IMG/VR virus record: IMGVR_UViG_3300050821_011652
DNA length: 64,000 nt
Source: an uncultured virus (IMG/VR IMGVR_UViG_3300050821_011652)
Lineage: Duplodnaviria > Heunggongvirae > Uroviricota > Caudoviricetes
Reading direction: 5' to 3' (one strand)
Positions 11,627 through 55,882 of the stretch are shown here, piece by piece. Positions within the stretch are counted from its first letter, which is position 1, and the number at the start of each line of letters is the position of its first letter. The position numbers and the translations under genes are program-made. Under the pieces are notes generated by a model that worked only from the letters and a program-made list of their open reading frames with translations, was not told where the DNA came from and made no database searches.

Positions 11627-11800
11627 AAATCGCCAACAGGTCGCCGTCTCAACGTCAGTTGACGTCACCAGGACAACACTTTTTCGGGTGTTGTCTCCGA
11701 GGGGAATGACAATAGTGACATTGATTTCTTATACTCTCTCTCTCTCTCTCTCTCTTCTCTTATATAAGAAGTAGGTCTCTTGTCATGTCATTTTGTCACC
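11536..11800. other. Putative replication origin (TGACA/TGTCA iterons around a CT run and AT-rich palindrome)
   Basis: TGACA at 11707 and 11716; three TGTCA at 11781-11798; (CT)10 at 11734-11753; TCTTATATAAGA palindrome; directly after helicase gene. Confidence 0.45.
11734..11754. repeat. (CT)n microsatellite
   Basis: 21-nt perfect CT run. Confidence 0.95.
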
Positions 11801-11829
11801 GGCAAAATTTGCCTAGCCCCCCGTCATCC

Positions 11830-12210: not shown

Positions 12211-12218
12211 AGTATGGA

Positions 12219-12247
12219 ACGATATCGTTCAATCTTGCAGCCTGCAA
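12219..12247 (-). promoter_or_regulatory. Candidate sigma70-type promoter for the 12210 gene (near-leaderless)
   Basis: TTGCAG-N17-TATCGT ending 8 nt before the ATG. Confidence 0.35.
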
Positions 12248-12315
12248 TGACCCGTCCGCGGATGCGCACACCGACCCCCTCGACAAGTTTGGGGTGGGTG
12301 TGATACTGTTCCCGT

Positions 12316-12861
12316 ATGGAAGATGAAAGTTCTATACTGGCGGTCCCCCTAAAGAAGCGACGAAAGTCTCGTTGGGGTGATTGGAAGAAGACCGAAAAAG
12401 GTAAACAATATGATAGGAGCTATAAACAGCGCCCCGAAGTTAAGGATCGAGAGAAGGCCCGAAGGGTTCGAAAGAGGGTTCAAAATAGGGCTCGGCACCG
12501 AGAGTTGCGGCGGGATCAAAGAGCTCGGGCTAGAGAGCGAGCGCGTACATGGCTCTCCGAATTTAAGTCTTCGGCTTCTTGTGCCTCTTGCGGATTTTCT
12601 CGTCCGGCCGCACTTCAGTTTCACCATGAGGGGGCGAAAAATAATACGATCCCTGATCTTATGGGCCGGGGCTCTTTGACAGCCCTCAAGCGAGAGATCA
12701 CTTTGTGTGTAGTTCTCTGCGCCAATTGCCACATGATCCTGCATGCGGCTGAGTTGGAGCGGGAGTTGTCTGAAGCGGCCGAGGGGCTAAGGGACTCAAG
12801 GCCGATGACAGATTGGGAGCGAAAAGCGGCTGCAGGATCTTTCTGGTCGGAGTTTGATTGA
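12316..12861 (+). CDS. HNH endonuclease
   Basis: Basic N-terminus; CASC...LQFHH...CVVLCANCH. Confidence 0.8.
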   Translation: MEDESSILAVPLKKRRKSRWGDWKKTEKGKQYDRSYKQRPEVKDREKARRVRKRVQNRARHRELRRDQRARARERARTWLSEFKSSASCASCGFSRPAALQFHHEGAKNNTIPDLMGRGSLTALKREITLCVVLCANCHMILHAAELERELSEAAEGLRDSRPMTDWERKAAAGSFWSEFD

Positions 12862-13316
12862 TGGACATCCAACTCCGGCGGGTCTTGATGACCCGTCAAC
12901 AAGGCTAATTCTAAAAAATCCAAAAAATCTTAGATCCGGTAGAGCAGTTCCCGGGATGTGTGTACCCCCCTGCCGGCACCACGCCCCCGGGTCCGACGCG
13001 CGACTAAAAGACCGCGCGCGAACCGCGACGCGAGCCAAATCCGTATTGGAGGTGTCGGACAGCGATGGCTGAACGAAACGAAAGCCGCGGTTGCGGTGAG
13101 TAGGACACAAACCCGTTCTTTCTCACAGATCATTCGTTCCGCCGGAAGTACCGAGACAAACCGGCTAGCCGATCGAGCCAGAGTAACAAGAGGCTGTGCA
13201 GATCAATCCTTGCGAATGCCACGCTAAGGGGAGTCACAGACGCCGACGGTGAAGGAGATGGGGCGCTTTCTAGCCCGAGCTGAATCAACAGCTCGGACAC
13301 AGAAAGCACCAATACC

Positions 13317-13673
13317 ATGCAACTTGCAACACTAGAGTCATTCGGAATTCAGATCGTCGGCGGCCGTGTAGCGAAGTCCATCAAGGACTCGCTCAAGTCA
13401 CAAGGGCTTAAGGGGCAAGGACTTCGGACGAAGTATTACGAAATCACTCGCGCTTGCGCTGCGGACACATCAGCTGTTCAAGGCGAGTTTGACGCGAGGG
13501 GATTTCTCAAGGAGGTCACCTCGATTCGTCACGACAAGAGTGGCGAGGTCATCGGCGGATCGGTCCGCTACTTTCGCCCGGTCGCGCCCAAGGCTAAGAC
13601 TAAGAGCGAGAAGGACAAGAGGATTGCGGCTCTCGAGAAAGAGCTTGCCGCGATGCGTGCACCCAAAGCCTAA
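13317..13673 (+). CDS. Basic hypothetical protein
   Basis: Preceded by structured GCACCA leader, followed by a hairpin. Confidence 0.65.
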   Translation: MQLATLESFGIQIVGGRVAKSIKDSLKSQGLKGQGLRTKYYEITRACAADTSAVQGEFDARGFLKEVTSIRHDKSGEVIGGSVRYFRPVAPKAKTKSEKDKRIAALEKELAAMRAPKA

Positions 13674-13678
13674 ACACA

Positions 13679-13705
13679 CTGCCGGGCATGACCCGGCAGA
13701 AGTTT
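13679..13705 (+). terminator. Possible intrinsic terminator
   Basis: CTGCCGGG-CATGA-CCCGGCAG hairpin between convergent genes; weak U tail. Confidence 0.4.
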
Positions 13706-13721
13706 AGACTTGTTAGGGCAT

Positions 13722-13762
13722 TATGTCAGTAGCCGAGGGAAGTGTACCAGAATCGTGTACCA
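13722..13762. repeat. Second copy of att half-core plus arm-type pair (direct repeat of 31923-31963)
   Basis: 36/41 identical to 31923-31963; GTGTACCA at 13742 and 13755. Confidence 0.8.
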
Positions 13763-13778
13763 GCGCGCCGAAAACGCG

Positions 13779-14417
13779 CTAGGATGCCTCAGGATCGCTC
13801 GCAAGCTCTGAGCTGGTAGATGACAGCTGTAATGGGCCAATCGATCGAGCCAGGGCCAATTCCGGCCCGCCGTTAAGCACGCTCAGGTTTATTAGTATCC
13901 CTGCTTTCTTTTCATCGTCACGATCTAATCCACGCGCACGAGCACCGGTCTTTTCAATCTTCTCAGCTATTGAAGCAACGGAGTCAGCCTGCATCATAGT
14001 CACGACGCCTTCACTCTGTTCAACCAGGTAGTCGGCGATGCGATCGGTGATGGTGGCGATCTTGTCGCGAAAAGTGTCCTTCCGAGGGAGAATCCCTTTA
14101 ATTCGCTCTTCGGCCGGGATCACCTCAGCCTTTGGGTTTGCAACTTTTTCCGAATTGGGCTCTGTTTTTTGCATGTTTGGCACGATTTGTGCCTGCTTTG
14201 CATCCCTGAGACCCTGAATTTGGCCATCTAAGTGCTCTTGTAATGGGATAAGTATGCGCTTTCTCTGAGCAACCCACCCTTCATCCTTTGCTTTCGATGC
14301 CACGGTATTAGGTGGAATCCCGAATATCTTAGCAATCGTGTGCGTTGAATGCTGACTTGCTAGATATGAGGCCTTTACGCTCTCCCAATCCCACTTTGCC
14401 CTCGCACCTTTTCTCAT
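13779..14417 (-). CDS. terS: Terminase small subunit-like HTH protein
   Basis: KWDWESVKASYL...IAKIFGIPPNTVASKAKDEGW N-terminal HTH; C-terminal ARARGLD. Confidence 0.65.
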   Translation of the reverse strand: MRKGARAKWDWESVKASYLASQHSTHTIAKIFGIPPNTVASKAKDEGWVAQRKRILIPLQEHLDGQIQGLRDAKQAQIVPNMQKTEPNSEKVANPKAEVIPAEERIKGILPRKDTFRDKIATITDRIADYLVEQSEGVVTMMQADSVASIAEKIEKTGARARGLDRDDEKKAGILINLSVLNGGPELALARSIGPLQLSSTSSELASDPEAS

Positions 14418-14597
14418 TTTGCACCCCTGTTACCCTGTGACCCTGTTGCTGTGCGCCAAAGCTGCCAAGTGACAGGGATCGAAGGCACTCTTGGCGCACT
14501 TAGATAAAGAATATCTTGCATCAATACCAATTTTACGCTTTAAGCAGGAACAGTTCAATCCTGTTCCCCCAACCAAAACCAATGCACAGCACCAAAT

Positions 14598-14759
14598 ATG
14601 AAATACAATGTCCCAGTCTACGGCAATGTGACCGTAGAAGCCTCGTCTGAAGACGAAGCGATCGAAAGAGTCAAGAGAGCCATGCACGGCGAACTCAACA
14701 ACGTCTCACTAAACGTTTTGCGTTCTCTCGAAATCGGCAGTGATGTTTATCCGTTATGA
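14598..14759 (+). CDS. Small hypothetical protein
   Basis: GCACCAAAT-ATG leader; VEASSEDEAIE pattern. Confidence 0.65.
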   Translation: MKYNVPVYGNVTVEASSEDEAIERVKRAMHGELNNVSLNVLRSLEIGSDVYPL

Positions 14760-15049
14760 AACCAGAACCAAAGTTCAAACCAATCCATCCCGAGGGCGCA
14801 CACTACGATCACGACTGTGACGCCTGCACATTTTTAGGAACTTGGCGCGGTGACGCTAAGCACGGCGCCGGCATTCACGACCATGACCTGTATTACTGCG
14901 GCGGCCGATGGCCGACGGTAATTGCTCGCTGTTCATCTGAGGGCAGCGATTACATGAGCGGCATAGTTTTTCGAACTCACAATCCTGCGATTGAAGAAGG
15001 GTGTAAGCGAGCTGAAGCGCTCGGTTTGAATTTGAAGCGCGGCGATTAA
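14756..15049 (+). CDS. Phage hypothetical protein
   Basis: HDCDACTFLG...DLYYC...TVIAR; coupled. Confidence 0.65.
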   Translation: MKPEPKFKPIHPEGAHYDHDCDACTFLGTWRGDAKHGAGIHDHDLYYCGGRWPTVIARCSSEGSDYMSGIVFRTHNPAIEEGCKRAEALGLNLKRGD

Positions 15050-15051
15050 TC

Positions 15052-15130
15052 GGAACGGGCGACGCACCAATTGTCGCCCTGTTCCCCTGCACCCCTGAAC
15101 CCCAACAATTCAGTACCCTAGCACCAAATG
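15052..15130 (+). promoter_or_regulatory. Structured leader element, partial (P1 + CCCTG array + GCACCA)
   Basis: GGAACGGGCGAC/GTCGCCCTGTTCC stem; GCACCAA-ATG. Confidence 0.7.
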
Positions 15131-15376
15131 ACCACCGAACACGAAAACCTATCCCGCATTCAAGAGCTCGTGTATGAGCTCGTTGAACTTGAGAAAGATC
15201 CCGAGCGCAAGAAAAACCTCAAAGCCGATTTAGCGAGCTCGACCGATTGGTTTGGCTCACTGCAAAGTATCCGGGAGTTTTGTCATGACTTCGAGGATGA
15301 AATTAAAGAGCGGCTCAATTGGCATTATTACATCGCCGAAGAGTATATCGACGCGAACCCGGCGGATCCAGAATGA
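15128..15376 (+). CDS. Acidic hypothetical protein
   Basis: ORF after leader element. Confidence 0.65.
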   Translation: MTTEHENLSRIQELVYELVELEKDPERKKNLKADLASSTDWFGSLQSIREFCHDFEDEIKERLNWHYYIAEEYIDANPADPE

Positions 15377-15543
15377 AAGCCAGCGAACTAATCCAACGAC
15401 TAAACGAACTAATCGCCGAGCATGGTGACCGCGACATCGTCTATCCTGACAATTCTGAACGCTCTTATGGTCCGCTTGAGGCGGATGAAGTTGATGAGTA
15501 CGAGCATTGGGATCACAAGACAATCCAATTTTATATTCGATGA
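15373..15543 (+). CDS. Small hypothetical protein
   Basis: MKASELIQRLNELIAEHGD; coupled. Confidence 0.65.
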   Translation: MKASELIQRLNELIAEHGDRDIVYPDNSERSYGPLEADEVDEYEHWDHKTIQFYIR

Positions 15544-15551
15544 GAGCGAGT

Positions 15552-15695
15552 GAACGGGCGAGAGCGGATGTCGCCCTGTTCCCCTGTGGCTCTGCGATAA
15601 ACCTCTACAGTACCTAAGCCGGTTTAAGTCCGGAGTCGCAGGGTCACAGGGGAGCAATAAAGCTCCGCGAACAAGAAACAAGAAAAAGACATATG
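15552..15695 (+). promoter_or_regulatory. Three-hairpin leader element copy (lacks GCACCA)
   Basis: P1, P2 CCCTGTGGCTCTGCGA/TCGCAGGGTCACAGGG, P3 GGAGC/GCTCC. Confidence 0.75.
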
Positions 15696-16016
15696 ACATA
15701 CGTGAAAAGAGACGAACAGGTCGACCTCAAATTCGAGGGTGACCTGATAGCAAAAGCGAGCAGCCGTTCAGTCAACGGCCCGAATCAAAATCGGTGGACT
15801 GAGATGAAGCTGTACAAAACCAAAAGCGGGAAATTCGTTATCGGGATCGCCGGCATAACCATCTGGCAGGGTGAGCATGACCGATACTCAGGTTATACAT
15901 GTAAGGACGAGAATGAAGTGGTGAAGGCTCTAATCGATCACAACGAGGGAGAGCTCAGCTGGTTGGCCAAGGAGCTATTGGGTGAGGCGGGAATTGATTC
16001 CGCTGAGGAAGTTTAA
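15693..16016 (+). CDS. Phage hypothetical protein
   Basis: FEG.LI...SS...RWTE.KLYKT..GKFV pattern. Confidence 0.65.
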   Translation: MTYVKRDEQVDLKFEGDLIAKASSRSVNGPNQNRWTEMKLYKTKSGKFVIGIAGITIWQGEHDRYSGYTCKDENEVVKALIDHNEGELSWLAKELLGEAGIDSAEEV

Positions 16017-16023
16017 ACGGGAT

Positions 16024-16136
16024 GGAACGGGCGAAACGGATGTCGCCCTGTTCCCCTGTGGCTCTGCAACCACGCACCCCAAATGCACGGTCGCAGGGCT
16101 ACAGGGGAGCATTAAGCTCCAAAGCACCAAAATATG
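16024..16136 (+). promoter_or_regulatory. Three-hairpin leader element copy
   Basis: P1-P2-P3 then AAAGCACCAAAAT-ATG. Confidence 0.8.
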
Positions 16137-16430
16137 AAACTATTCAAAATATCCCAAACCGTGAACGGAGGGTATGACACATATGACTCAGTGGTCGTAT
16201 GCGCTGAGGATGAAGAAGCAGCTCGAAGGATCCATCCGATGGGGGAAAACAACACTTATTTTCTGGATGAAGAGGACACCTGGATGCTGCGGCTCATCAA
16301 GGGCGGAGTTGTTCCTTACGGTGGTGGGGAGCGGGCGTGGGCACTTCCTAAAGATGTGATCGTTGAGTATCTAGGAGAAGCGCAGGGATGGAAGCACGGG
16401 GTTATTGTCGCGTCGTTTAACGCGGGGTAG
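16134..16430 (+). CDS. Phage hypothetical protein
   Basis: GYDTYDSVVVCAEDEEAARRIHP...VIVASFNAG. Confidence 0.7.
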   Translation: MKLFKISQTVNGGYDTYDSVVVCAEDEEAARRIHPMGENNTYFLDEEDTWMLRLIKGGVVPYGGGERAWALPKDVIVEYLGEAQGWKHGVIVASFNAG

Positions 16431-16444
16431 GAGAAAGCACCAAT

Positions 16445-16630
16445 ATGACCACCGACGAATTAATTGCGTTGTACCGTAAGAAAGCGGCACAAAAACCAGG
16501 CTTTGACCAACTGCCGCTGGACGAGCAGCGCTACGAAGTGACCCTGCTTTTGGCAAAAAAGGTCATGAGCTTAGCGCGCGAATTGCACAAGCTGAATCCG
16601 AAGGGTTTGTATTTGAGAAAGGATTTATAG
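16445..16630 (+). CDS. Hypothetical protein
   Basis: GCACCAAT-ATG leader. Confidence 0.6.
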   Translation: MTTDELIALYRKKAAQKPGFDQLPLDEQRYEVTLLLAKKVMSLARELHKLNPKGLYLRKDL

Positions 16631-16633
16631 AAT

Positions 16634-16774
16634 ATGATCTGTACCCGATGCAACAAAGGCGAAGCGTTAGCGCCGCATTCCTGCCCCTATGCTGAAGAAC
16701 TCGATGGCATCCACGATGATGAGTTTTGTGATTGCTGCGAAGATTGTACGGATTACTGCGCGGAGTGTATATGA
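16634..16774 (+). CDS. Cys-rich small protein
   Basis: MICTRC...HSCPY...CDCCEDC...C. Confidence 0.6.
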   Translation: MICTRCNKGEALAPHSCPYAEELDGIHDDEFCDCCEDCTDYCAECI

Positions 16775-16947
16775 CCCTTTACCGCGTTAAAACTAGCAGC
16801 GGCGAGATCGATTCTATCTATGATTCCTACGTTGAAGCGAAGGAGCGCTTTAGCCAATTGATCGAGTCGGATGGCTTTTATGAGATCACGCTCTCAGAGT
16901 TAGAGGTCGTGAATGAACAAGAGATTGAAAATTGGATCGACGATTGA
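16771..16947 (+). CDS. Small acidic protein
   Basis: Coupled ATGA start. Confidence 0.55.
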   Translation: MTLYRVKTSSGEIDSIYDSYVEAKERFSQLIESDGFYEITLSELEVVNEQEIENWIDD

Positions 16948-17078
16948 TATGAACACCGAACAGAAATATAAGATTCTCTTGGAATTTGTGAGGGAATTGT
17001 TATGGAAGCATTCGCGTATTCCCTGCCGGTGGAGGCCGTGGGCGTATCGCGTATTAAGAGAGATAGGAGAAGAGTGAT

Positions 17079-17417
17079 ATGAACCAAAACACTTTTTGCC
17101 AAATATGCCGTAAGCCGAGCCCACAGCATGACCCGGACTGCCCGGTTAAAACTGGCCGGCCAGTTACCTCGCTTCAGAGTCAAATGGCCGATGGGTCGAT
17201 ATTTCAACAACAGAACGGAATGTTGGGACAGATGGGTCAAATCCGCGACCCCAAACGCATTGATGACATTCTAGACGCCCTGAAACTCTACTGGAAAGAA
17301 AACCCGGATCTGCGGCTAACTCAGATTATCGGGAACTGTTTCGGGCCACACGAACTTTATTATTACGAGGATGAGGAATTTTACCAATACCTTTTAACCA
17401 CAAAGGATCGACAATGA
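17079..17417 (+). CDS. Zn-finger plus DUF1040-like protein
   Basis: CQIC..H..C; RDPKRID.IL..L..YW...PDLRL.QII. Confidence 0.55.
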   Translation: MNQNTFCQICRKPSPQHDPDCPVKTGRPVTSLQSQMADGSIFQQQNGMLGQMGQIRDPKRIDDILDALKLYWKENPDLRLTQIIGNCFGPHELYYYEDEEFYQYLLTTKDRQ

Positions 17418-17586
17418 CCTACAAATACTACGAACTTGAATTTGAGAAACGCGACGATATTCCCTCCGTGTTCCTAAACGACACGATGAACCAATTGGCG
17501 TTCGAGGGTGAGGTTCTGCTCGCCTTTGACGATGGGTTTGGGGTTGAATCAACTCCCGATATGGAATGGTAATGTTCCACGGGTAC

Positions 17587-17705
17587 GGAACGGGGTGTGA
17601 CCTTGCACCCCTGTTCCCCTGTGATCCGGCAACCTTGTTATCTTTCCACCGGGTGGAAGGACCGCAGGGTCACAGGGGAGCAAAAACGCTCCAAGCACCA
17701 ATATG
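17587..17705 (+). promoter_or_regulatory. Three-hairpin leader element copy
   Basis: P1 covaried to GGGGTG/CACCCC; P2; P3; AAGCACCAAT-ATG. Confidence 0.8.
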
Positions 17706-17996
17706 AAGATCAAAGAATTGTTTAGTGATCAGTCCAAATGGACGAAGAAAACCGCCGCTCGAGATGCGAGTGGGACTCCTGTTTCGCCGTCCGATTCAGA
17801 CGCTGTTTGCTGGTGTCTGGCGGGAGGGGTTGCAAAGTGTTATCCGGGCGAAGAACGGTATAAGGTCCACGACGCAATCGTGGAGAAGTTATCCGGATCA
17901 GCCCAAGGCTATGGTTATGGATCGGCGTACGGCGACTGGAATGACCGGGCGTCGTTTGAAGAGGTGAAGGCGTTAGTTGAGCAATTGGATATATAA
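17703..17996 (+). CDS. DUF6197-like protein, paralog 1
   Basis: IKELFSD..W...AVCWCL.G...WND. Confidence 0.65.
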   Translation: MKIKELFSDQSKWTKKTAARDASGTPVSPSDSDAVCWCLAGGVAKCYPGEERYKVHDAIVEKLSGSAQGYGYGSAYGDWNDRASFEEVKALVEQLDI

Positions 17997-18000
17997 ATAC

Positions 18001-18161
18001 GGAAGGGGCGGCTTCCTTGTCGCCCTGTTCCCCTGCACCCACGTACCTTAAGGCGCGAGACAAGACGGGAGTTCACCACGGTTGAATGAACTAACCCATG
18101 GTCGCGAAAATGCGTGGGTGCAGGGGAGCAAAAACGCTCCAAGCACCAATCCAATTATATG
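18001..18161 (+). promoter_or_regulatory. Three-hairpin leader element copy with long P2 insert
   Basis: P2 CCCTGCACCCACGTA/TGCGTGGGTGCAGGG; P3; GCACCA. Confidence 0.8.
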
Positions 18162-18314
18162 AAGACAATCGTATTACCATCTACCCTATTGAGAGCACTC
18201 AAGAAGGGCAAAATTGATCCGGAGACTCGGGCTGAGGCACTGAGTCTATACTTCCGCTCTAACCGGCGGTTCTTTAACTGCCCTTCCGTTCGAACCGCGG
18301 GGAGGGTGAGATGA
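18159..18314 (+). CDS. Small basic protein
   Basis: ORF after leader element. Confidence 0.55.
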   Translation: MKTIVLPSTLLRALKKGKIDPETRAEALSLYFRSNRRFFNCPSVRTAGRVR

Positions 18315-18688
18315 CCTTAGGGCCAAAACAAAGGATCTGGGTCGATGCGCTCAGGTCTGGTGAATATAAGCAGGGCGATGGTTGTCTCTTTGATCCGGAG
18401 ACGCAGTCATATTGCTGTCTAGGCGTTGCCAATTGCGTCCTCGAGTTGGGGGAAGGCGACGAGCACGTGTTGGAATACACTTACCAGCAGTTAGGGCTAA
18501 GGGGTCAGTCCGGCGCGATCGTGGGCTTAAGTCTCGAAGCTTTTAAAGAGCTGCATGACCTCCCGGCCGGGTATGATCCGACATTCACAATTGAACTAAC
18601 GGCGCTCAACGATCGGGGTTGGTCGTTTTCTAAAATCGCCGATCTAATCGAGCAGCACCCACACTGGGTGTTTGAAAGGAGCGTATGA
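18311..18688 (+). CDS. Phage hypothetical protein
   Basis: WVDALRSGEYKQG...YCCLGV...ND.G.SF..IADLIE. Confidence 0.7.
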   Translation: MTLGPKQRIWVDALRSGEYKQGDGCLFDPETQSYCCLGVANCVLELGEGDEHVLEYTYQQLGLRGQSGAIVGLSLEAFKELHDLPAGYDPTFTIELTALNDRGWSFSKIADLIEQHPHWVFERSV

Positions 18689-18969
18689 CCATCAAGGAAT
18701 TATTCAGCGATCCGGCGCGGCACACGCGGTTTTACTACGCGGAAACCGCGGAGAACAAAGATTGCGGGGCACTTGCTCCAGATGCGGTGCGCTGGTGTTT
18801 GGCTGGCGCGTTAACTAAGTGTTATCGCAATGACTCGGAACGCGAATGGGCTGAGGACGCATTAAGAGCAGCGGCCATGGGAATCTTCGGCACTCTCGAC
18901 TTTGTGATAATCAATGATCACAAACCGTTTGAAGATGTGATGAAACTTGTGGAGGCAGCCGGCGTGTGA
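18685..18969 (+). CDS. DUF6197-like protein, paralog 2
   Basis: TIKELFSD...AVRWCLAGA...IND. Confidence 0.65.
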   Translation: MTIKELFSDPARHTRFYYAETAENKDCGALAPDAVRWCLAGALTKCYRNDSEREWAEDALRAAAMGIFGTLDFVIINDHKPFEDVMKLVEAAGV

Positions 18970-19227
18970 AAAAACAGGGACGGAGAACCCCCCGGTTTCC
19001 CGTCCCTGCTTCAGTTATCCTCAATCCCAAACCCACTCAGGCTTGGGACACCGACTTTGGAGTACTGAAAGAGGTAAGTCAATATGAATAAAAGAATAAG
19101 AGAGTCATGTCGAACGTGAAATCAAAGAAGCTGAGGTCAGCGTGTGTCAACTGGAGGCGAAGCTTGTGGCCCTCTATAGGATTCTGAACGTTATCAAAAT
19201 CGAGGAAGCTAACGAGGCGAAGTAAAC

Positions 19228-19321
19228 GGAACGGGGTGCGCGCCTAGCACCCCTGTTCCCTTGATCCCGTACGATCACTCCGTATTGGATCAGGGGAGCA
19301 GAAAGCTCCGCACCAAATATG
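19228..19321 (+). promoter_or_regulatory. Three-hairpin leader element copy (shortest)
   Basis: P1, P2 CCTTGATCC/GGATCAGGG, P3, GCACCAAAT-ATG. Confidence 0.8.
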
Positions 19322-19693
19322 AATATCTATCAAAAACTATACCGCGGGATCAAGGATCACTGCGAGCTTGAAGACGACGCGATAATCGATGCGGGCCGGC
19401 ACGGCGCTGACGCTGGTTGGGGCGGTTTCTCTTACACCAAGGATTGCTGTGAGTTTTACGAAGCCAACAAGGAGGAGATTTGGGAGTTGCTGCGTGAGGC
19501 TGCTGATGGGCAAGGACTGAAGCCGCTTGAGCTTGTAGCGCAGTTCGGTCGTAGCGACATGGCAGATGACCCTGACGGGCTAGAGAACCTACTAGCCTGG
19601 TTTGCGCTAGAAGAAGTGGGACGCTGGCTGGAAGACAATCGGTCGGAGGGTGATGATTTTGAAGAGGAAGAGGAGTCGGACGAAAAGGATTGA
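19319..19693 (+). CDS. Acidic protein, possible DNA mimic
   Basis: GGFSY...FY...NLLAWFALEEV; acidic tail DDFEEEEESDEKD. Confidence 0.6.
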   Translation: MNIYQKLYRGIKDHCELEDDAIIDAGRHGADAGWGGFSYTKDCCEFYEANKEEIWELLREAADGQGLKPLELVAQFGRSDMADDPDGLENLLAWFALEEVGRWLEDNRSEGDDFEEEEESDEKD

Positions 19694-19770
19694 CTTTCAC
19701 CAAGTATTGAATAGACCAAATCCATAACAAAAGGAGCAACTGAACGATTAGGTAGAACTTGAGTGAGTGT

Positions 19771-19895
19771 GAGCGGGGGACGTGGAACTCCCCCGTTCCT
19801 TCCAGCCTCGAGATTAAATCATAGCCGGATCCAAAGCGCTTTGGAGGGGCCGGTACGGGGTTGGAAGGAGCGAAAGCGCTCCGCACCAAAATATG
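19771..19895 (+). promoter_or_regulatory. Diverged three-hairpin leader element copy
   Basis: Different sequence, same fold: GAGCGGGGGA/TCCCCCGTTC, CTTCCAGCCTCG/CGGGGTTGGAAG, GGAGC/GCTCC, GCACCAAAAT-ATG. Confidence 0.75.
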
Positions 19896-20159
19896 AAGAA
19901 ACTAATATTATGTTTGTTATTGCCAGCCGTGAACGCGGTGGCTTTTGATCCATACGGCGCGGATGACAGTGTGCCAGTAACACGGTTCCAGTTTATGGGG
20001 CACGGGATTGTTATCACATATGGGACTCACCATACGTACGACGGGTATCGCAAATTATACGACGCCTTTATTGATGGTCATTCGACCTCGATACAATTTC
20101 AAAACTCCGTAGGGGAGGAGATTCAAGCAGTGATGAGTGATCTCCAGGGGGCGAAATGA
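19893..20159 (+). CDS. Small secreted protein
   Basis: MKKLILCLLLPAVNAVA signal peptide. Confidence 0.6.
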   Translation: MKKLILCLLLPAVNAVAFDPYGADDSVPVTRFQFMGHGIVITYGTHHTYDGYRKLYDAFIDGHSTSIQFQNSVGEEIQAVMSDLQGAK

Positions 20160-20344
20160 AGACCCTTCCGTCCGGGCCAGAACCTAGACCTACAGTCTGG
20201 GTCGTTCTTTGCCGCTTCGATTATGAAGGTGATTCAGTGGAGTGCATCTTTTCAAATGAGGCTGCGGCGATGGAATATAGAGAACAACGTCAGCAGGAAG
20301 ATAAGTGGTATCAGTATCTGGTCGAAGAGTGGGAGGTGAAATGA
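20156..20344 (+). CDS. Small hypothetical protein
   Basis: VWVV...DYEG...IFS...A...EEWEV; coupled. Confidence 0.6.
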   Translation: MKTLPSGPEPRPTVWVVLCRFDYEGDSVECIFSNEAAAMEYREQRQQEDKWYQYLVEEWEVK

Positions 20345-20538
20345 ACATTCCCCCCGAACATTATTACGAGGCCGAGTTTGAAGGCGCGCCGTGCCCGACG
20401 GTTCAGGAAGAGATGGCTTTAAGTCGAATAGTGGAGGAGGGAGAGCGGCTGCTTCGATACCAAGCAATTATTCGATTCGTGCCCATCGTCGTCATTATCC
20501 TCGGGATAGTGTTGATGATCGCTAGTGACTGGATCTAA
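20341..20538 (+). CDS. Small membrane protein
   Basis: C-terminal TM helix; coupled. Confidence 0.55.
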   Translation: MNIPPEHYYEAEFEGAPCPTVQEEMALSRIVEEGERLLRYQAIIRFVPIVVIILGIVLMIASDWI

Positions 20539-20608
20539 CCCGCGACACCGCCCTCGGTATGGAACGATCGAGGTCGGTACGCGAGATAGACTCGCAAAGC
20601 ACCAAAAT

Positions 20609-21037
20609 ATGAAAACACCATTTAAACACGTCGGTTCCGTTTCACACGGAACCTTACGGCCGGAGGATTTAGTTCCTACCTTCGCCATCTTGTTATATAA
20701 ACTCGATCCTGAGCACTTCCCCGAGCGACACCCGGTCGATCTGGAGGAAGAGGTGGAGTGGCTGATTGATCGACTAAACGATTACGCGCCGCCCTACTTC
20801 TATTTCGGCGCCCATCCGGGCGACGGATCGGACTTCGGGTTCTGGTTCGATGAAGAATCATTCGAACAGGCCGTGGCGGACGGAGAGATAGTTAAACTCG
20901 CCGGTCTACCAGACTTCGAACGCATCCGCGATGACTATGGTGAGTGGAACGGGGTGTTCTATGTCGCGGTCATCTCTGACCACGGCAACATCTCGCTCTA
21001 TGATCTAGATGGAGAGGAGCTGTGGGCAATCGTATGA
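20609..21037 (+). CDS. Acidic phage protein
   Basis: GCACCA leader; SHGTLRPEDL...YFGAHPGDGSDFGFW. Confidence 0.7.
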   Translation: MKTPFKHVGSVSHGTLRPEDLVPTFAILLYKLDPEHFPERHPVDLEEEVEWLIDRLNDYAPPYFYFGAHPGDGSDFGFWFDEESFEQAVADGEIVKLAGLPDFERIRDDYGEWNGVFYVAVISDHGNISLYDLDGEELWAIV

Positions 21038-21318
21038 CCATCAAGGAATTACTATCCGATCGGGCCAATTGGGCTCAACACGATTACGCGTACAGGGCAG
21101 ATGGGGAGGGGTGTTGGGGGACGGACAAAAACGCAGTTTGTTGGTGCCTCTTAGGAGCGGTTGATAAAGTTTATCCCGGGCTTGAAGGGGCAGTTAAGGG
21201 AAAGATAGGGGACGCCATTCGGAAGCTGTACCCCGAGCGAGTTATAGGCGCGGCCGATGTGAATGACGAATTAGGGTACGAGGCGGTGATGAAGGTCGTG
21301 GAGGAGGCGGGAGTATGA
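21034..21318 (+). CDS. DUF6197-like protein, paralog 3
   Basis: TIKELLSD..W...AVCWCLLGA...ND. Confidence 0.65.
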   Translation: MTIKELLSDRANWAQHDYAYRADGEGCWGTDKNAVCWCLLGAVDKVYPGLEGAVKGKIGDAIRKLYPERVIGAADVNDELGYEAVMKVVEEAGV

Positions 21319-21509
21319 CCCAACTCGCCGAGTTAGCCGACGCTGAAGTTGAGACGGTCAGGAAGCTCTTTCGCAAGCACGAACACTGGCACGGTTTGGA
21401 TTACGCCGAGCGATCGATTTACCGAAAGCTGTGGCCGGTGAAGGCGAAGGAAACGCCCTGTCACTGCGGAGAGTGTGAGCAGTGCTGTCCTTCGGTAAGA
21501 CCATTGTAA
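21315..21509 (+). CDS. Small Cys-rich protein
   Basis: CHCGECEQCC; coupled. Confidence 0.5.
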   Translation: MTQLAELADAEVETVRKLFRKHEHWHGLDYAERSIYRKLWPVKAKETPCHCGECEQCCPSVRPL

Positions 21510-21519
21510 CCCTGTGCTT

Positions 21520-21924
21520 ATGTCACCCTGCATTGAGTGGAAAGGGACTCTCCGCGACAAGGATGGTTACGGGCGTCGGAAGTATAGAGGGAAAGTGTGG
21601 CAAGCCCATCGAGCAGCTTGGCATGAATGCAAAGGAGAAATCCCAAAGGATTTGTGGGTGCTTCATCGATGTGACAATCCAGCCTGTGTGCGGGTAAGTC
21701 ATTTGTTTCTCGGCACCCACCAGGATAATGAGGACGACAAATGTAGAAAGAATCGTCAGTCCAAAGGAGAGGGACACCGAAATGCGAAGTTGATTCAGAT
21801 TGATGTGGACTTGATTAGAGGTTTGTATTCAACCGGAGAGTTTCAGCAGAAAGAGCTAGCTGGAATGTTCCGGGTCGGCCAAAACCAGATATCGCGCATT
21901 GTCCGGCACGAAGAGTGGGCCTGA
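21520..21924 (+). CDS. HNH homing endonuclease with C-terminal HTH
   Basis: CIEW.G...GYG...AHR...VLHRCDNPACV..HLFLGT..DN. Confidence 0.85.
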   Translation: MSPCIEWKGTLRDKDGYGRRKYRGKVWQAHRAAWHECKGEIPKDLWVLHRCDNPACVRVSHLFLGTHQDNEDDKCRKNRQSKGEGHRNAKLIQIDVDLIRGLYSTGEFQQKELAGMFRVGQNQISRIVRHEEWA

Positions 21925-22035
21925 GTTCCTGTCGCCCTGCACCCCTGTTACAAATCCTCTACACTTATTGATAAGTGGCGACGTTTTGTAACGGCGGGGG
22001 CCGGGCTGAGGGATTTAGAAATCCCGCACCAAAAT

Positions 22036-22203
22036 ATGAATGAATCCAGAACAAAAGAATTCATCGAGCTGATCGCTCGAATGACCAAAGACGGAGAAGA
22101 GGTAGATGGCGAGGAGTTTATTATGGAGAACGACGACGCCGTGTACATCCTCAATGGTTTGATCCATGAGGCTAGAAGCTTGTTGGGGGTGAAAGATGAA
22201 TAA
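22036..22203 (+). CDS. Small acidic protein
   Basis: Hairpin plus GCACCAAAAT-ATG leader. Confidence 0.6.
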   Translation: MNESRTKEFIELIARMTKDGEEVDGEEFIMENDDAVYILNGLIHEARSLLGVKDE

Positions 22204-22708
22204 GTATTATGTCGGTTTCGGGTTCTCTACTTTCATAGAAGCCGAGAGTGAGGAAGAGGCGGTAAAGAAGGCTGAAAAAGCGCTGGCCGAAAATGGCTAC
22301 GCTGTGCATGTACAAAAAGTATGACCACACTTCAGGAAGGTCGGCCTACGTCGGGGTGGTAATCATTAAGCCGCTACACTGCCCGGGGCTATAGGCCCTC
22401 GGCAGTAAGCAGTTTAAACTGCAAGCACCAAAATATGAATAAAACATCAAAGACAGAATTCCTTGACTTCGAAGCACAATCTCCGCCACTCTCGAGTGGT
22501 TCTGAGTGTTTCAGAAGCAGAGCAGTTGGAGTTAGAACTAGATCATGACGATTCACATGCCTATGACGGGTTAAAGTCCTTCGGGCTCTTAATCCATGGG
22601 TCACAGCGGGGCGGTTCAATCGCTTCAAAGGCAGTCAGGGAGCTGAAGGGATTAGGATCCTATTCCCGCGAGGCGTAACCCTCAAAACGCATTTTTACCG
22701 GTAAAAAT

Positions 22709-22861
22709 ATGGACATCTTTTGGCTAGGATTTTTGTTTGGCGCGCTATCCTGCGCCTTTGTCTGGATATTGCTCACCTTCATCGCAATTTGCATGCTCTC
22801 TAGATCCTCTCTTGTGGAGGAATGCCCGGCGGATGAAACCGCCGAAACTAAACTTTCATAG
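22709..22861 (+). CDS. Small membrane protein
   Basis: N-terminal TM; preceded by 18-bp palindrome. Confidence 0.5.
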   Translation: MDIFWLGFLFGALSCAFVWILLTFIAICMLSRSSLVEECPADETAETKLS

Positions 22862-22866
22862 GTGCA

Positions 22867-22906
22867 AAGGGGGCTCTCCCAATCGGGGAGGGCCCTCTTA
22901 CCTTTC
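22867..22906 (+). terminator. Possible intrinsic terminator
   Basis: AAGGGGGCTCTCCC-AATC-GGGGAGGGCCCTCTT hairpin then pyrimidine run. Confidence 0.45.
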
Positions 22907-22938
22907 ACACTTCGGAACTTTGGAACACTTGGAACAAC

Positions 22939-23181
22939 ATGAAATATAAGATCGCGACGTCTCTCGACGTCACATTTAATGACAATTTCGAACAGATTCG
23001 AGATGAGTTTACGGCGGCGGTAGGCGACGAGTCTCCCGACCGGATTGTTAGTGCTGGTATCGAATTGATGCAGGCCTATTCAATTAGGCTTGAGTTTTTA
23101 ATGCATTCTCTCCAGGATCATCTGGATGATTTGTCAAAAGTGCTATCTGCGCTACGAGGCAGGAGTGAGGGGGAAGAATGA
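22939..23181 (+). CDS. Hypothetical protein
   Basis: ORF in + strand array. Confidence 0.55.
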   Translation: MKYKIATSLDVTFNDNFEQIRDEFTAAVGDESPDRIVSAGIELMQAYSIRLEFLMHSLQDHLDDLSKVLSALRGRSEGEE

Positions 23182-23356
23182 ACACAGAGCAAGAAAAAGT
23201 GATAAAGCTCCTTATGCGAGGAGAGTCGCCGGAGGACCTGAAAGATGATTTCGGATCTGAAGTGGTTGAGGAAGCAATAGCGAAATTAGAGGAAAGAATT
23301 TAGTTGCACAAGATATGGAACAATGTATATCCATATCGCAAGCACCACCCAATCAA

Positions 23357-23650
23357 ATGGATCAACTCACATCCCGAGTCTGGCGGGCTATTTCAAACGC
23401 AGACGCTCTTCCCTTCTTCCTCGAGCTCTTAGACGGCTCCGAGGGTCCTGAAGTAGCGGAGTCCTTGAGAGAGTTCTTTTTAGACGAAAATGAGAAAGTC
23501 GAATGGAGTGAGTCCGTCCCGGACGTTCTTCAATCCCTTCTCACCGATAGCTTGGAGTTGGTGGAGTGGGAACTAATCGCCCGCAAGTGGAGGGATCTTA
23601 TGGGCATGATCGAGGAGTATCAGGAAATCGTTCGGGGGGTGGAGGATTGA
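23357..23650 (+). CDS. Acidic hypothetical protein
   Basis: GATATGGA/TCCATATC hairpin plus GCACCA leader favours ATG 23357. Confidence 0.6.
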   Translation: MDQLTSRVWRAISNADALPFFLELLDGSEGPEVAESLREFFLDENEKVEWSESVPDVLQSLLTDSLELVEWELIARKWRDLMGMIEEYQEIVRGVED

Positions 23651-23982
23651 GAACCCCACAAAGGCAAAAGGAATCTGACGCGTTACTTCAATACTTCCAG
23701 TACGCTTTCAAACAGGGAAAGCTGATCTCGATCCCGGTGGTGGATACGCAGAACGTGGAGAAAGAGGAGTGGATGATAATCTCGAAGGAAGGGCAAAAGG
23801 GATACCCTCTGGCGCTTTTGATGTTGGATCCGGTCGAGGCGGCGGCCAGGTATCCAGCAATGGTCACCGCTCCGTCCGACACGCCTTTAAAGGACGAACT
23901 GGAGAAGCGGGAGCCGAAGGGTACGCCTGCGTTAGATAAAGCGGCGAGGGCGGGGAAGATGAGACGAAAAAGGAAGTCCTAG
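23647..23982 (+). CDS. Hypothetical protein
   Basis: TTG start overlapping upstream stop. Confidence 0.5.
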   Translation: MRTPQRQKESDALLQYFQYAFKQGKLISIPVVDTQNVEKEEWMIISKEGQKGYPLALLMLDPVEAAARYPAMVTAPSDTPLKDELEKREPKGTPALDKAARAGKMRRKRKS

Positions 23983-24070
23983 AAAAGCGGAAGCCGAGGT
24001 TATGACGACCTCGGCTTCCAAGCACCAAATTATGAATGACAGCCATACGATAACGGCTTCTGGCCGCACG

Positions 24071-24655: not shown

Positions 24656-24657
24656 GT

Positions 24658-29814: not shown

Positions 29815-30120
29815 AGGCGGATCAAAGGGGTCAGCGTTCAATCCGTGGCCCCTCACCAAAATCTATGAAAAAACAAAACAGTAAACCGGCCAAGTCGGCC
29901 GTCAAAGGCGCGAGCAACATGCTGCAGGCGTACACGGGGATGGGTGCAGCGGCGGCAAAGGGAAAGAAGAAAGGGAAGAAATGAGCATGATTGTTGACGG
30001 CCGCCGCGCCGTTTTTAATGTCGTGATCGATGGAATTTTAATCGCGACTGGGTTTGATTCACCTGAAGCGGCAGACGCCTTCGCGCGTAAGTATATTCTC
30101 GATCAAAAAGGAGAAAAGAA

Positions 30121-55826: not shown

Positions 55827-55882
55827 GCTTAGAGGAACAATAAATCAGATATGGATCGGACGCATTCCATATTTCCGAGCGC

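Follow-up and report, generated by a model that had tools for sequence, protein, structure and literature searches.

An uncultured soil phage carries some fourteen small units of accessory genes, each headed by an RNA hairpin, the hexamer GCACCA and an ATG start codon. The signal is real in its motif, its position, its specificity for one gene class, the selection of its long hairpins in the RNA sense and the openness of the start region around it, and it is of a kind already known from other phages, where it has never been explained. We suggest, at somewhat less than even confidence, that it is a lineage-specific, start-associated sequence on the mRNA, placed behind an insulating hairpin, which directs or regulates how the first cistron is initiated without a Shine-Dalgarno sequence. 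The window, the whole stretch of DNA analysed, comprises 64 kb of a contig of roughly 76.9 kb, with about 12.9 kb lying outside it. A bacterial host is indicated by two of the encoded proteins, one from an endolysin family (phrog_315) and the other a DNA polymerase of family A.

GCACCA at the heads of accessory-gene units

As an earlier sequence-only reading had reported, GCACCA is found on the + strand at 14 of 14 listed positions, each 1–10 nt before an ATG. The spacers, in site order, are 5, 3, 1, 4, 2, 2, 10, 3, 4, 4, 4, 4, 9 and 4 nt, and the ORFs opened by these ATGs are 37–215 aa long. The sites and two variants are as follows.

Unit head 1, 13275..13319 (+): 8-bp hairpin 13275–13296, GCACCA 13306–13311, ATG 13317, ORF of 118 aa
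Unit head 2, 14547..14600 (+): 7-bp hairpin 14547–14567, C/A-rich, G-poor leader, GCACCA 14589–14594, ATG 14598; ORF of 53 aa, then ATGA-coupled gene at 14756
Unit head 3, 15095..15130 (+): 5-bp hairpin 15095–15113, GCACCA 15121–15126, ATG 15128; ORF of 82 aa, then ATGA-coupled gene at 15373
Unit head 4, 16049..16136 (+): long covarying hairpin 16049–16111, alternative short hairpin 16106–16120, GCACCA 16124–16129, ATG 16134; ORF of 98 aa, phrog_5444 aligned from residue 1
Unit head 5, 16408..16447 (+): hairpin 16408–16425 within the 3' end of the upstream gene (stop 16430), GCACCA 16437–16442, ATG 16445, ORF of 61 aa; intergenic space only 14 nt
Unit head 6, 17612..17705 (+): long hairpin 17612–17682, short hairpin 17677–17692, GCACCA 17695–17700, ATG 17703; DUF6197 protein, 97 aa
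Unit head 7, 18026..18161 (+): long hairpin 18026–18130, short hairpin 18125–18140, GCACCA 18143–18148, 10-nt spacer, ATG 18159 (51 aa, weak codon score), then ATGA-coupled genes with Shine-Dalgarno sequences at 18311 and 18685
Unit head 8, 19254..19321 (+): long hairpin 19254–19300, short hairpin 19295–19309, GCACCA 19310–19315, ATG 19319; DUF7222 protein, 124 aa
Unit head 9, 19794..19895 (+): long hairpin 19794–19872 with the outer pair altered on both arms (CGTTCC:GGAGCG), short hairpin 19867–19882, GCACCA 19883–19888, ATG 19893 (88 aa)
Unit head 10, 20581..20611 (+): 5-bp hairpin 20581–20595, GCACCA 20599–20604, ATG 20609 (142 aa, phrog_29605)
Unit head 11, 22010..22038 (+): 6-bp hairpin 22010–22025 abutting GCACCA 22026–22031, ATG 22036 (55 aa)
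Unit head 12, 22409..22437 (+): 5-bp hairpin 22409–22422, GCACCA 22425–22430, ATG 22435 (37 aa, weak codon score); N-terminus paralogous to that of the gene at 22036
Unit head 13, 23312..23359 (+): 8-bp hairpin 23312–23337, GCACCA 23342–23347, 9-nt spacer, ATG 23357 (97 aa)
Site 14, 23989..24034 (+): 13-bp hairpin 23989–24019 (T-run on the minus-strand side), GCACCA 24022–24027, ATG 24032
Variant cassette, 15577..15695 (+): long hairpin 15577–15656, short hairpin 15651–15666, AAGAAAC (15673), ATG 15693 (107 aa)
Candidate variant site, 29853..29867 (+): TCACCAAAATCT-ATG, start 29865, 39 aa, then ATGA-coupled genes

The enrichment check proposed in the sequence-only reading favoured the motif in its placement. 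Taken over both strands GCACCA shows no enrichment (36 copies, 28.65 expected; 10 of 100 shuffles reach 36), but 15 of the 22 + strand copies lie within 13306–24034, a segment that makes up 16.8% of the window (binomial p = 1.2e-7). With start association defined as an ATG opening an ORF of at least 35 aa within 10 nt, 14 of the 22 are start-associated, compared to a background of 5.3% over all 2,798 hexamers with at least 12 copies (p = 2.9e-13). No hexamer scored above GCACCA by this measure, the overlapping CACCAA being equal at 14. The extended consensus is (A)A-GCACCA-A(A)(A)(T)-ATG-A(A). The start codon is ATG in every case, and conservation extends across it, with ATGAA at 10/14 GCACCA starts versus 14/54 other starts (Fisher p = 0.0025) on our own ORF-based gene map, from which GTG- and TTG-start ORFs were left out. 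The motif was said to mark the first gene of each unit, and later genes do mostly follow by 4-nt ATGA or GTGA overlaps, often with GGAGG-like Shine-Dalgarno sequences (GGAGG/AAGGAG). Its reported absence before replication and virion genes also agrees with our search, in which nothing comparable was found upstream of these genes with a weight matrix that was built from the 14 sites themselves, making the search circular.

Codon scoring clearly preferred the ORF frame in 11 of the 14 GCACCA-headed ORFs; those following 18143 (51 aa) and 22425 (37 aa) scored poorly. The N-termini at 16134 and 19319 are real, since family profiles align from the first residues (residues 1–98 to profile positions 1–82 of 82 for phrog_5444, and residues 5–102 to positions 5–100 of 108, respectively). 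The site at 24022 probably precedes no real gene, judging by its 215-aa ORF, which is codon-aligned antisense to a minus-strand gene (24071–24655) conserved in relatives. That this site nevertheless scores fully as a motif counts against a role in translation.

Hairpins, start-region structure and Shine-Dalgarno use

A hairpin of variable sequence was described as usually preceding the motif, and one adjoins it at 11/14 sites, ending 0–3 nt before GCACCA; at the other three the distance is 7–22 nt. The hairpin sequences differ between sites. The short hairpins have stems of 5–13 bp and loops of 4–10 nt. In six long hairpins (19–24 bp) pairing is kept through changes on both arms, and their outer 19 positions contain 17 G.T wobbles and no A.C oppositions; therefore the long hairpin folds in the mRNA-sense strand. 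The arms-only folding energy of the six is −207.0 kcal/mol on the + strand and −146.3 on the − strand, and they are selected in the mRNA-sense strand. This asymmetry is confined to the six long stems, as whole intergenic regions show none when folded (−644.5 vs −639.9 kcal/mol). Compared to 54 other starts, the 14 GCACCA sites are more structured upstream from −50 to −8 (−12.7 vs −7.8 kcal/mol, p = 0.0016) and more open from −12 to +12 (0.69 vs 0.53 unpaired, p = 2e-4), with a G content of 8% from −12 to −1. Since no T-run follows them, the hairpins of the GCACCA units do not suggest canonical termination at each of these units.

RNase III processing hairpins lie between the early genes of phage T7. 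The 19–24 bp sense-strand RNA hairpins between units resemble those sites, suggesting that a host or phage endoribonuclease might cut at or beside GCACCA, or RNase III within the long stems. This would split a polycistronic early transcript into units, leaving the first cistron with a very short leader and the hairpin as the protective 3' end of the upstream RNA. Such processing would suit the single-stranded A-rich stretch 3' of each hairpin, the ATG starts without Shine-Dalgarno sequences, and read-through transcripts, which are likely because the hairpins lack T-runs. It is nonetheless distinctly unlikely: stems of RNase III length occur in only six units, the remaining hairpins being 5–13 bp, the spacer to the AUG varies from 1 to 10 nt where leaderless translation would ideally have none of this variation, and neither a candidate nuclease nor a tRNA-like or Rfam structure was found.

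The tRNA-like form of this idea, in which the hairpin and GCACCA mimic a CCA-ended acceptor arm cut by tRNA-processing enzymes, is disfavoured and hardly credible. The resemblance of GCACCA after a hairpin to a tRNA 3' terminus is countered by the geometry, in which CCA lies 3–6 nt past the stem and not one discriminator base away, the stems are 5–13 bp and the loops of 4–10 nt show no T-loop pattern. ARAGORN detected no tRNA or tmRNA, and Rfam was blank at the gathering threshold and at E<=1.

GCACCA was proposed to stand in place of a Shine-Dalgarno sequence, which holds for these 14 starts: 13 of them have no GGAG, GAGG, AGGA or GGGG from −4 to −18, and the exception, 16437, has AGGAG upstream of GCACCA. 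Among the 68 listed ATG-start genes, 32 have neither a Shine-Dalgarno sequence nor GCACCA, so the phage is not strictly Shine-Dalgarno-dependent. It also follows that initiation without a Shine-Dalgarno sequence strictly needs no special signal here, which counts against the translational reading. One gene family, DUF6197, is served by both signals: GCACCA heads the unit-first paralogue at 17703, and the internal paralogues have an SD-like G-rich run instead (at 18685 AAGGAG, 3 nt from the ATG; at 21034 GGAGAGGAG, 15 nt from the ATG).

A start-associated sequence or a promoter

The sequence-only reading had offered a dedicated signal, for example one acting by cleavage after a tRNA-like CCA. 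The cleavage part is unsupported, and a class-specific signal, RNA-acting or factor-bound, fits the sense-strand-selected long hairpins, the open start region and the lack of promoter-type features found. On this reading GCACCA would be the core of a start-associated sequence on the mRNA. It lies in an A/C-rich, G-poor stretch free of structure, immediately 3' of a stable sense-strand hairpin and 1–5 nt (twice 9–10 nt) from the AUG. It heads the first cistron of each accessory-gene unit, where translational coupling is unavailable and a Shine-Dalgarno sequence is absent. The hairpin would shield the start region from what lies upstream and might also stabilise or end the upstream RNA, and the open GCACCA-A-rich-AUG-AA region could serve as a loading site for ribosomes without a Shine-Dalgarno sequence. 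Its action in translation, like its recognition by a factor, is our inference. The hexamer would most likely be read by a trans-acting phage or host protein or RNA, or by a ribosomal component, and such a factor would switch this gene class on or off jointly.

Several observations sit poorly with this reading. A strictly invariant hexamer exceeds the needs of an unstructured enhancer, no partner was identified, and at three sites the spacer of 1–2 nt leaves too little room for SD-like pairing close to the 3' end of the rRNA. The sense-strand RNA hairpins are equally compatible with a terminator-plus-promoter cassette.

In such a cassette, which would be PeSL-like, GCACCA(A)n would be the core of a phage-specific promoter, and transcription would begin within the motif or immediately beyond it. 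The polymerase using this promoter would be either a phage enzyme that has escaped recognition or that of the host, redirected by a factor from the phage. The hairpin would terminate the previous unit, and first-gene mRNAs would be leaderless or near-leaderless. We regard this as rather unlikely. A promoter would explain why the motif marks unit-first genes, keeps to a single strand and is confined to one gene class, and would also explain the 14/14 ATG starts without a Shine-Dalgarno sequence, which leaderless mRNAs require. The site at 24022 lacks a convincing downstream gene and has an upstream hairpin resembling a terminator of the minus-strand gene, and the relatives' different motif at the equivalent place is what one would expect from co-evolution between a site and the specificity of its polymerase or factor. 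Many of this phage's large proteins have no family match, and a phage RNA polymerase or sigma factor too diverged to be recognised may be encoded, including in the roughly 12.9 kb outside the window. Intergenic repeats are described as promoters in T4 PeSLs (PMC2839356) and halovirus HF2 (PMC8707807).

Against a promoter, no phage RNA polymerase, sigma factor or −10-like element was found. T7-like RNA polymerase (PF00940) and sigma-70 region 2 (Sigma70_r2) were not detected in two complete relatives; for PF00940 the blank is weak, as the search found nothing in any control genome either. Nor does the giant virion protein look like an RNA polymerase: its likeness is to polyvalent proteins of the LPD38/SprT type, and its single D-x-D-x-D match (DKDVD) is not of the DxDGD type. 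The conserved stretch is only about 12 nt, and the would-be −5 to −35 region is the variable-sequence hairpin. Sigma-70-like promoter matches in the block number 14 (10.1 expected), of which one is on the + strand, and none on that strand falls at a GCACCA site. The −10-like xAxxxT is not enriched upstream of the motif (6/14 sites vs 36% of random positions), and TANNNT occurs at leaderless distance in 1/14 sites. The hairpins' lack of T-runs and the 14 nt that make up the entire intergenic space at 16437 also argue against such a cassette.

Relatives and known phage elements

The GCACCA element is absent from the closest accessible relatives (helicase 40–42% identical), which have a looser AGAAAC(A)n-ATG element in its place. 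The unit at 15693 has an upstream hairpin cassette as elsewhere, but AAGAAAC, the relatives' motif type, replaces GCACCA. The accessory block is hyperplastic: only DUF6197 and two minus-strand genes, among many ORFs, have homologues in relatives. The hairpin-GCACCA junction might therefore be mainly a homology patch, or a recombinase or homing nuclease site, for accessory-gene exchange, with nearness to the ATG secondary, a reading compatible with the others. One gene lies between two copies of an exact 31-nt repeat (15565–15595, 16037–16067), at which assembly contigs break off. The phage encodes four HNH endonucleases and a tyrosine recombinase, and PeSLs are described as mediating such shuffling (PMC2839356, PMC4122927). 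We consider this improbable: an ATG-adjoining hexamer that never changes, next to hairpins whose sequences vary between sites, indicates that selection acts on expression. The recombinase, a generic enzyme of Xer-like type, scores 20.8 bits with the integron integrase model (cut-off 265), direct reading showed no attC-type GTTRRRY core after the hairpins, and no population variants were seen, the sequence being identical in runs X2 and X3.

Variable-sequence hairpins between or before early genes are also a feature of T7 and N4. Only six stems of the GCACCA-unit type are long enough for the RNase III of the T7 system. The hairpin promoters of N4 require its virion RNA polymerase and 3-nt loops; no N4-type enzyme was detected here and the loops are 4–10 nt. 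In archaeal viruses, conserved early-gene regulatory sequences have been used to find anti-defence genes (PMC11065993), and the intergenic repeats of halovirus HF2 carry promoters (PMC8707807). A shared short upstream sequence likewise marks co-regulated small early or accessory genes, but those sequences are described as promoters of archaeal viruses (PMC11065993, PMC8707807), whereas no promoter features were found at the GCACCA sites and a bacterial host is indicated.

Among known elements, the SAS/ESAS of Cluster K mycobacteriophages and the PeSLs of T4 come closest. In the published descriptions SAS is a short, asymmetric, one-orientation motif 3–9 nt before the starts of 13–19 genes (PMC3203893, PMC11373665, PMC12699233). 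It is reported as confined to the non-structural arm and associated with genes from unrelated families, with a strong ATG preference (80/93, vs 14/14 for GCACCA) and an imperfect inverted repeat with a variable spacer before about half of the sites. The SAS is 13 bp (GGGATAGGAGCCC) and includes an AGGAG Shine-Dalgarno core, unlike GCACCA with its G-poor leader, and its consensus does not occur here (allowing <=2 mismatches, 2 matches against 1.97 expected). The ESAS of Adephagia is described as holding a putative SigA-like promoter, whereas no sigma-70-like promoter was found at GCACCA, and the 2011 authors saw little support for an RNA hairpin, in contrast to the covarying long stems here (17 G.T vs 0 A.C). 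Cluster K phages are also unrelated to the present phage. The function of SAS/ESAS is still called unknown in papers of 2024 and 2025 (PMC11373665; 188-genome survey, PMC12699233). This closest published analogue shares the layout and has also been read as translation-linked (PMC3203893, PMC11373665), in favour of a start-associated sequence. The PeSLs (promoter-early stem-loops) are described as small intergenic cassettes repeated through hyperplastic regions, each with a stem-loop that contains G-T pairs and stands immediately ahead of an ORFan gene; the repeated copies are usable as crossover points (PMC2839356, PMC4122927). They differ in being defined by a strong sigma-70-like promoter and in having a terminal Shine-Dalgarno sequence (PMC2839356); neither is present at GCACCA sites. 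Because it is short and repeated, the GCACCA cassette probably makes accessory genes portable, as the PeSLs do in T4.

Gene layout and the distribution of GCACCA

The window takes in 64 kb of a phage-like contig, which is recorded for its helicase cluster with a length of 76,861 nt and of which ~12.9 kb lies beyond the window. The window's sequence is present in three soil-metagenome DNA runs; contigs of these runs, compared over the accessory block, were identical in sequence, with no variants and no joints. The ORF-based gene map of the window contains the following features.

1-32 kb, + strand: exonuclease, family A DNA polymerase (two ORFs), helicase and HNH endonucleases
12.9 to 24.7 kb, + strand: block of small ORFs, followed by a tyrosine recombinase
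32-64 kb, - strand: virion genes, an endolysin-family gene and a 2773-aa protein
12316-12861, 21514-21924 and 24658-25176 (+ strand) and 57147-57617 (- strand): four HNH or endonuclease VII-type nuclease genes
54456-55826 and 56306-57145, - strand: two virion genes behind a shared upstream element, the second a head-protein gene

All 14 copies of GCACCA that the sequence-only reading had placed 1-10 nt before an ATG are present. Counting both strands, the window holds 36 copies against 28.65 expected, so the word itself is not enriched and its distribution is the striking part: the segment 13306-24034 makes up 16.8% of the window and holds 15 of the 22 + strand copies (p 1.2e-7), and 14 of the 22 are followed, at a distance of no more than 10 nt, by an ATG whose ORF reaches 35 aa or more. 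Start association of this kind has a background rate of 5.3% across the 2798 hexamers that occur 12 times or more (p 2.9e-13 for GCACCA); GCACCA is the top-scoring hexamer, equalled at 14 by the overlapping CACCAA and exceeded by none. The 14 sites all lie on the + strand of the accessory block, all use ATG, and open ORFs of 37-215 aa, with a spacer of 1-5 nt at 12 sites and 9-10 nt at two. The conserved stretch around them reads (A)A-GCACCA-A(A)(A)(T)-ATG-A(A). A weight matrix derived from the 14 sites themselves, and hence circular, gave 13 of them the top ranks, the best further matches being TCACCAAAATCT-ATG, which stands at 29853 in front of a small gene, and GTACCA, at 26366; over the window, this circular matrix found nothing comparable before replication or virion genes.

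Several other features of the map are of note. The family A DNA polymerase is split into overlapping + strand ORFs at 4414-5478 and 5466-6335 (354 and 289 aa) and is a single 626-aa ORF in the relative G002; the two-ORF form could mean that the gene is split, that a frameshift is present or that the assembly is wrong here. The single-gene unit 15693-16016 stands between two exact copies of a 31-nt direct repeat (15565-15595 and 16037-16067), at each of which public assembly contigs of the phage are interrupted, and the gene could be looped out through the repeat. Two virion genes on the - strand share an upstream element (55827-55880 and 57146-57200) that abuts the ATG, lacks a Shine-Dalgarno (SD) sequence and consists of a 9-bp hairpin, ATATGGAAT...ATTCCATAT, followed by CTGnnTTATTGTTnCTnTAag; a 19-mer of this element has two matches against 0.03 expected, and it may be the late-gene counterpart of the accessory-block cassette. 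A bacterial host is indicated by the endolysin-family match. Contigs of Verrucomicrobiota metagenome-assembled genomes carry an integrase with 35% identity to that of the phage, a faint hint of a host in that phylum; the rest of the phage had no further match on those contigs.

Start context and hairpin structures

The sequence-only reading had the motif in place of an SD sequence, and no SD-like tetramer was found at 13 of the 14 sites. The later genes of each unit are, as described, mostly coupled, with ATGA or GTGA overlaps at most of their junctions, and GGAGG-type sequences are frequent among them. The DUF6197 copy at 17703 is first in its unit and has GCACCA, and the copies at 18685 and 21034 are internal and have in its place an SD-like G-rich run, 3 nt and 15 nt from the ATG, respectively. 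Among the 68 ATG-start genes of the ORF-based map (GTG- and TTG-start ORFs excluded), 14 have GCACCA, 22 an SD-like tetramer and 32 neither; the phage is not strictly SD-dependent. When set against the 54 other starts, GCACCA starts are more structured in the -50..-8 region (-12.7 vs -7.8 kcal/mol, p 0.0016) and more open in the -12..+12 region (0.69 vs 0.53 unpaired, p 2e-4). Their leader is G-poor (8% G in -12..-1), and conservation reaches into the coding region, with ATGAA at 10 of 14 GCACCA starts vs 14 of the 54 others (p 0.0025). As to the reality of the ORFs, family models match the products of 16134, 17703, 19319 and 20609, two of the alignments beginning at the first residues, and codon scoring clearly prefers the ORF frame in 11 of 14, being weak for 18159 and 22435 and ambiguous for 24032.

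The sequence-only reading had a hairpin usually preceding the motif, and indeed one ends 0-3 nt 5' of GCACCA at 11 of the 14 sites; none of the sites' hairpins is followed by a + strand T-run. A longer hairpin cassette is common to six units, namely five GCACCA units and the unit at 15693, its left arm TGTTCCCCTG... pairing with the right arm ...CAGGGGAGCA over 19-24 bp around loops of 7-57 nt. Sequence is conserved in the outer 10 bp, and the inner parts vary among copies yet remain complementary; in the copy at 19794 the outer pairs too are altered, on both sides. Over their outer 19 positions the six stems show 17 G.T oppositions and not a single A.C, and folding of the arms alone gives -207.0 kcal/mol for the + strand vs -146.3 for the - strand, which marks the structure as one selected in the mRNA-sense strand. 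This asymmetry appears with the long stems isolated; folds of whole intergenic regions showed none. The right arm ends in GGAGC, which is also the 5' half of the short hairpin adjoining GCACCA, so that the long and short structures are mutually exclusive.

Repeats of CCCTG-N3-CCCTG with an 8-nt period form 13 arrays on the + strand, all within 14.2-25.8 kb (14204-25792), and together with three CAGGG-N3-CAGGG arrays they make up arms of the long hairpins; these arm repeats are absent from the relatives examined. The C-rich, G-poor CCCTG stretches could be protein or Rho binding sites too. CAGGG arrays also lie directly upstream of the ATG of gene 13779-14417, one of only two - strand genes within the + strand block. 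Its product has a match to phrog_4151, 'DNA binding protein' (E 8e-7), and counterparts with 26-28% identity in the relatives (L107, L079 and G002); the gene is a candidate regulator of the accessory block.

The same structures bear on the reading of GCACCA as an RNA-processing site, which we regard as distinctly unlikely. Six stems of 19-24 bp are predicted in the window, where ~20 bp of double-stranded RNA is the criterion for an RNase III site. The particular form suggested from sequence, cleavage after a tRNA-like CCA, fails every test made: ARAGORN found no tRNA in the window and Rfam no structure there, either at the gathering threshold or at E<=1. A tRNA-like or RNase P-type minihelix is likewise rejected, the CCA standing 3-6 nt from the stem and not one discriminator base away.

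Relatives and the overlapping gene at site 14

GCACCA was found at starts in none of the relatives examined. The closest of these, with a helicase 40-42% identical, are G001 (loci L079 plus L187) and L107, with G002 related more weakly; G002 (loci L186, L188, L189, L080 and L185) has a complete genome of 78,613 nt bounded by direct terminal repeats, and the physical ends of this genome lie inside the small + strand gene block and not at the replication/virion divergence point. Their equivalent block carries AGAAAC(A)n 0-12 nt before ATG ORFs, start-associated copies accounting for 12 of 31 + strand AGAAAC in G001, 7 of 15 in L107 and 8 of 28 in G002. G001 carries AAGAAACA 16 times, 15 of these on the gene strand and all within 7.3-23.6 kb. 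Hairpins of the relatives are not tightly joined to the AGAAAC motif, and one is a canonical terminator with a T-run. The window retains a single AAGAAAC unit, at 15673, behind the hairpin cassette of its GCACCA units, which indicates that GCACCA and AAGAAAC occupy the same slot. The accessory ORFs themselves are almost wholly unshared among the relatives. In L107, AAGAAAC occurs in three tandem copies within 45 nt before a single ATG (8609-8660), an arrangement more in line with a binding element that acts additively than with a promoter that has a single start point.

The accessory block had no megablast match among phage records, a tblastn search of phages with the helicase gave matches at 25-26% coverage only, and a helicase profile search of genome contigs and a search of IMG/VR with a PolA fragment had no match. 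The exact 16-mer AGCACCAAAATATGAA had 78 single, unrelated matches in IMG/VR, none with repeated start-associated copies. A closer relative is represented by an integrase (P0122) 63% identical to that of the window, on a 34.8-kb contig.

Site 14 (24022) stands apart. Its ORF (24032-24679, + strand, 215 aa) runs antisense and codon-aligned to a - strand gene at 24071-24655 (194 aa) that is 40% and 44% identical to genes in two relatives, and these counterparts have no long overlapping + strand ORF; site 14 is therefore a complete instance of the element, but one that probably has no own gene behind it. The hairpin of site 14, which carries a T-run on the - strand side, may act as terminator of the - strand gene. 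The last 22 nt of the 215-aa frame lie within the following + strand gene, an HNH endonuclease gene whose start codon is 2 nt from that of the - strand gene. The latter is without TTA, CTA or TCA codons (chance ~0.0025 at the phage's 3.05% usage), and the open frame at 24032 may be due to chance or be a maintained read-through frame.

Readings of the element and comparison with known systems

A promoter or initiator reading of GCACCA would require a polymerase or factor that reads ~12 nt beside a variable hairpin; none was found, and we consider this reading unlikely. No sigma-70 region 2 was detected in the two complete relatives, and PHROGs searches of 27 proteins of G002 gave no polymerase family. 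A T7-like polymerase (PF00940) was absent from G001 and G002 as well, a weak result because no control genome matched either. The giant virion protein (32352-40673, - strand, 2773 aa; 5690-16381, 3563 aa in G002) has an SprT-like metalloprotease motif and a single D-x-D-x-D match (DKDVD), not of the DxDGD type, and no match among PDB sequences. Its nearest ESM Atlas clusters are of the LPD38 polyvalent type and carry LPD38, LPD39 and ART-PolyVal domains, so that it resembles the polyvalent proteins and not an RNA polymerase. A scan of the block for the sigma-70 consensus, from which the host promoter type may differ, had one of its 14 matches on the + strand and none at a site, and the -10-like xAxxxT is not enriched (6 of 14 sites vs 0.36 at random positions).

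Four specific identities do not fit. Leaderless mRNA from a host sigma-A-type promoter would need TANNNT ending ~6-8 nt before the start, which occurs at only one of 14 sites. An N4-type hairpin promoter would need a virion-packaged T7-like RNA polymerase and a 5-7-bp stem with a 3-nt loop; the loops here are of 4-10 nt, the weak polymerase search is blank and the giant protein is LPD38-like. Archaeal promoters have their TATA box at about -26; the hairpin loops, ~17-23 nt before the ATG, are too near for a TATA box in the loop. For an integron attC array, the integrase scores 20.8 bits vs the TIGR02249 cut-off of 265, and the hairpins are followed by (A)AGCACCA instead of the attC core GTTRRRY. 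A mainly recombinational role for GCACCA, which would be compatible with the other readings, appears highly improbable.

The reading we tentatively prefer, as one possibility of several, is a start-associated signal at the mRNA level, by which SD-independent initiation is brought about or controlled. The preference derives from the sense-strand hairpins, the open start region, the conservation across the AUG and the exchange of SD for GCACCA within one gene family. More doubtfully, GCACCA could be the address label of a translational regulon with a dedicated trans-acting reader. Such a reader, which might be a phage-encoded protein, a small RNA or a part of the host ribosome other than the anti-SD, would bind single-stranded GCACCA beside the AUG and load or block ribosomes on about 14 accessory-gene mRNAs, with no SD pairing. 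Newly acquired genes would enter the regulon through the portable hairpin-GCACCA-AUG cassette, and the AGAAAC of the relatives would be an ancestral, looser element served by a reader of different specificity. If GCACCA is such a label, it would define an SD-independent, class-specific initiation route in bacteria. It would also offer an easy means of recognising, from sequence, early or accessory genes that are regulated together in uncultured phage genomes, the tagged genes being candidates for host take-over or anti-defence functions. Regulatory-motif searches have done a similar gene-finding job in archaeal viruses (PMC11065993). A practical limit is that the phage is known from soil metagenomes alone.

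Matches listed for GCACCA with phage and start codon in the literature were, by title, unrelated. Start-associated sequences have been known in phages since 2011, and their function is still stated to be unknown (PMC3203893, PMC11373665, PMC12699233). The start-associated elements of Cluster K mycobacteriophages (SAS/ESAS) are described there as short, asymmetric sequences that precede the ATG of non-structural genes by 3-9 nt, with an inverted repeat of variable spacer ahead of about half. The layout seen here is closely similar: GCACCA too is asymmetric, in one orientation, ATG-preferring and confined to non-structural genes, and five of the 14 sites, as well as the AAGAAAC unit, have an inverted repeat of 19-24 bp whose loop measures 7-57 nt. 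The sequences differ: the 13-bp SAS consensus GGGATAGGAGCCC, allowing at most two mismatches, has two matches in the window vs 1.97 expected, none at a gene start. The promoter-early stem-loops of T4-type phages (PeSLs) are defined by a sigma-70-like promoter and an SD (PMC2839356, PMC4122927). The stem-loop, ATG and ORFan context described there recur in the window cassettes, but the sites have no strong sigma-70-like early promoter (-35, -10, AT-rich upstream) and the SD is missing in 13 of 14. The GCACCA element is thus an independent start-associated example, in a phage unrelated to the Cluster K mycobacteriophages. Whereas SAS holds the SD core AGGAG, GCACCA has no SD core, which separates a start-associated signal from ordinary rRNA pairing. 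The inverted repeats of the window show RNA-type covariation, which the 2011 paper did not observe for ESAS (PMC3203893), and there is clear evidence that these repeats beside the motif are structures of the RNA.
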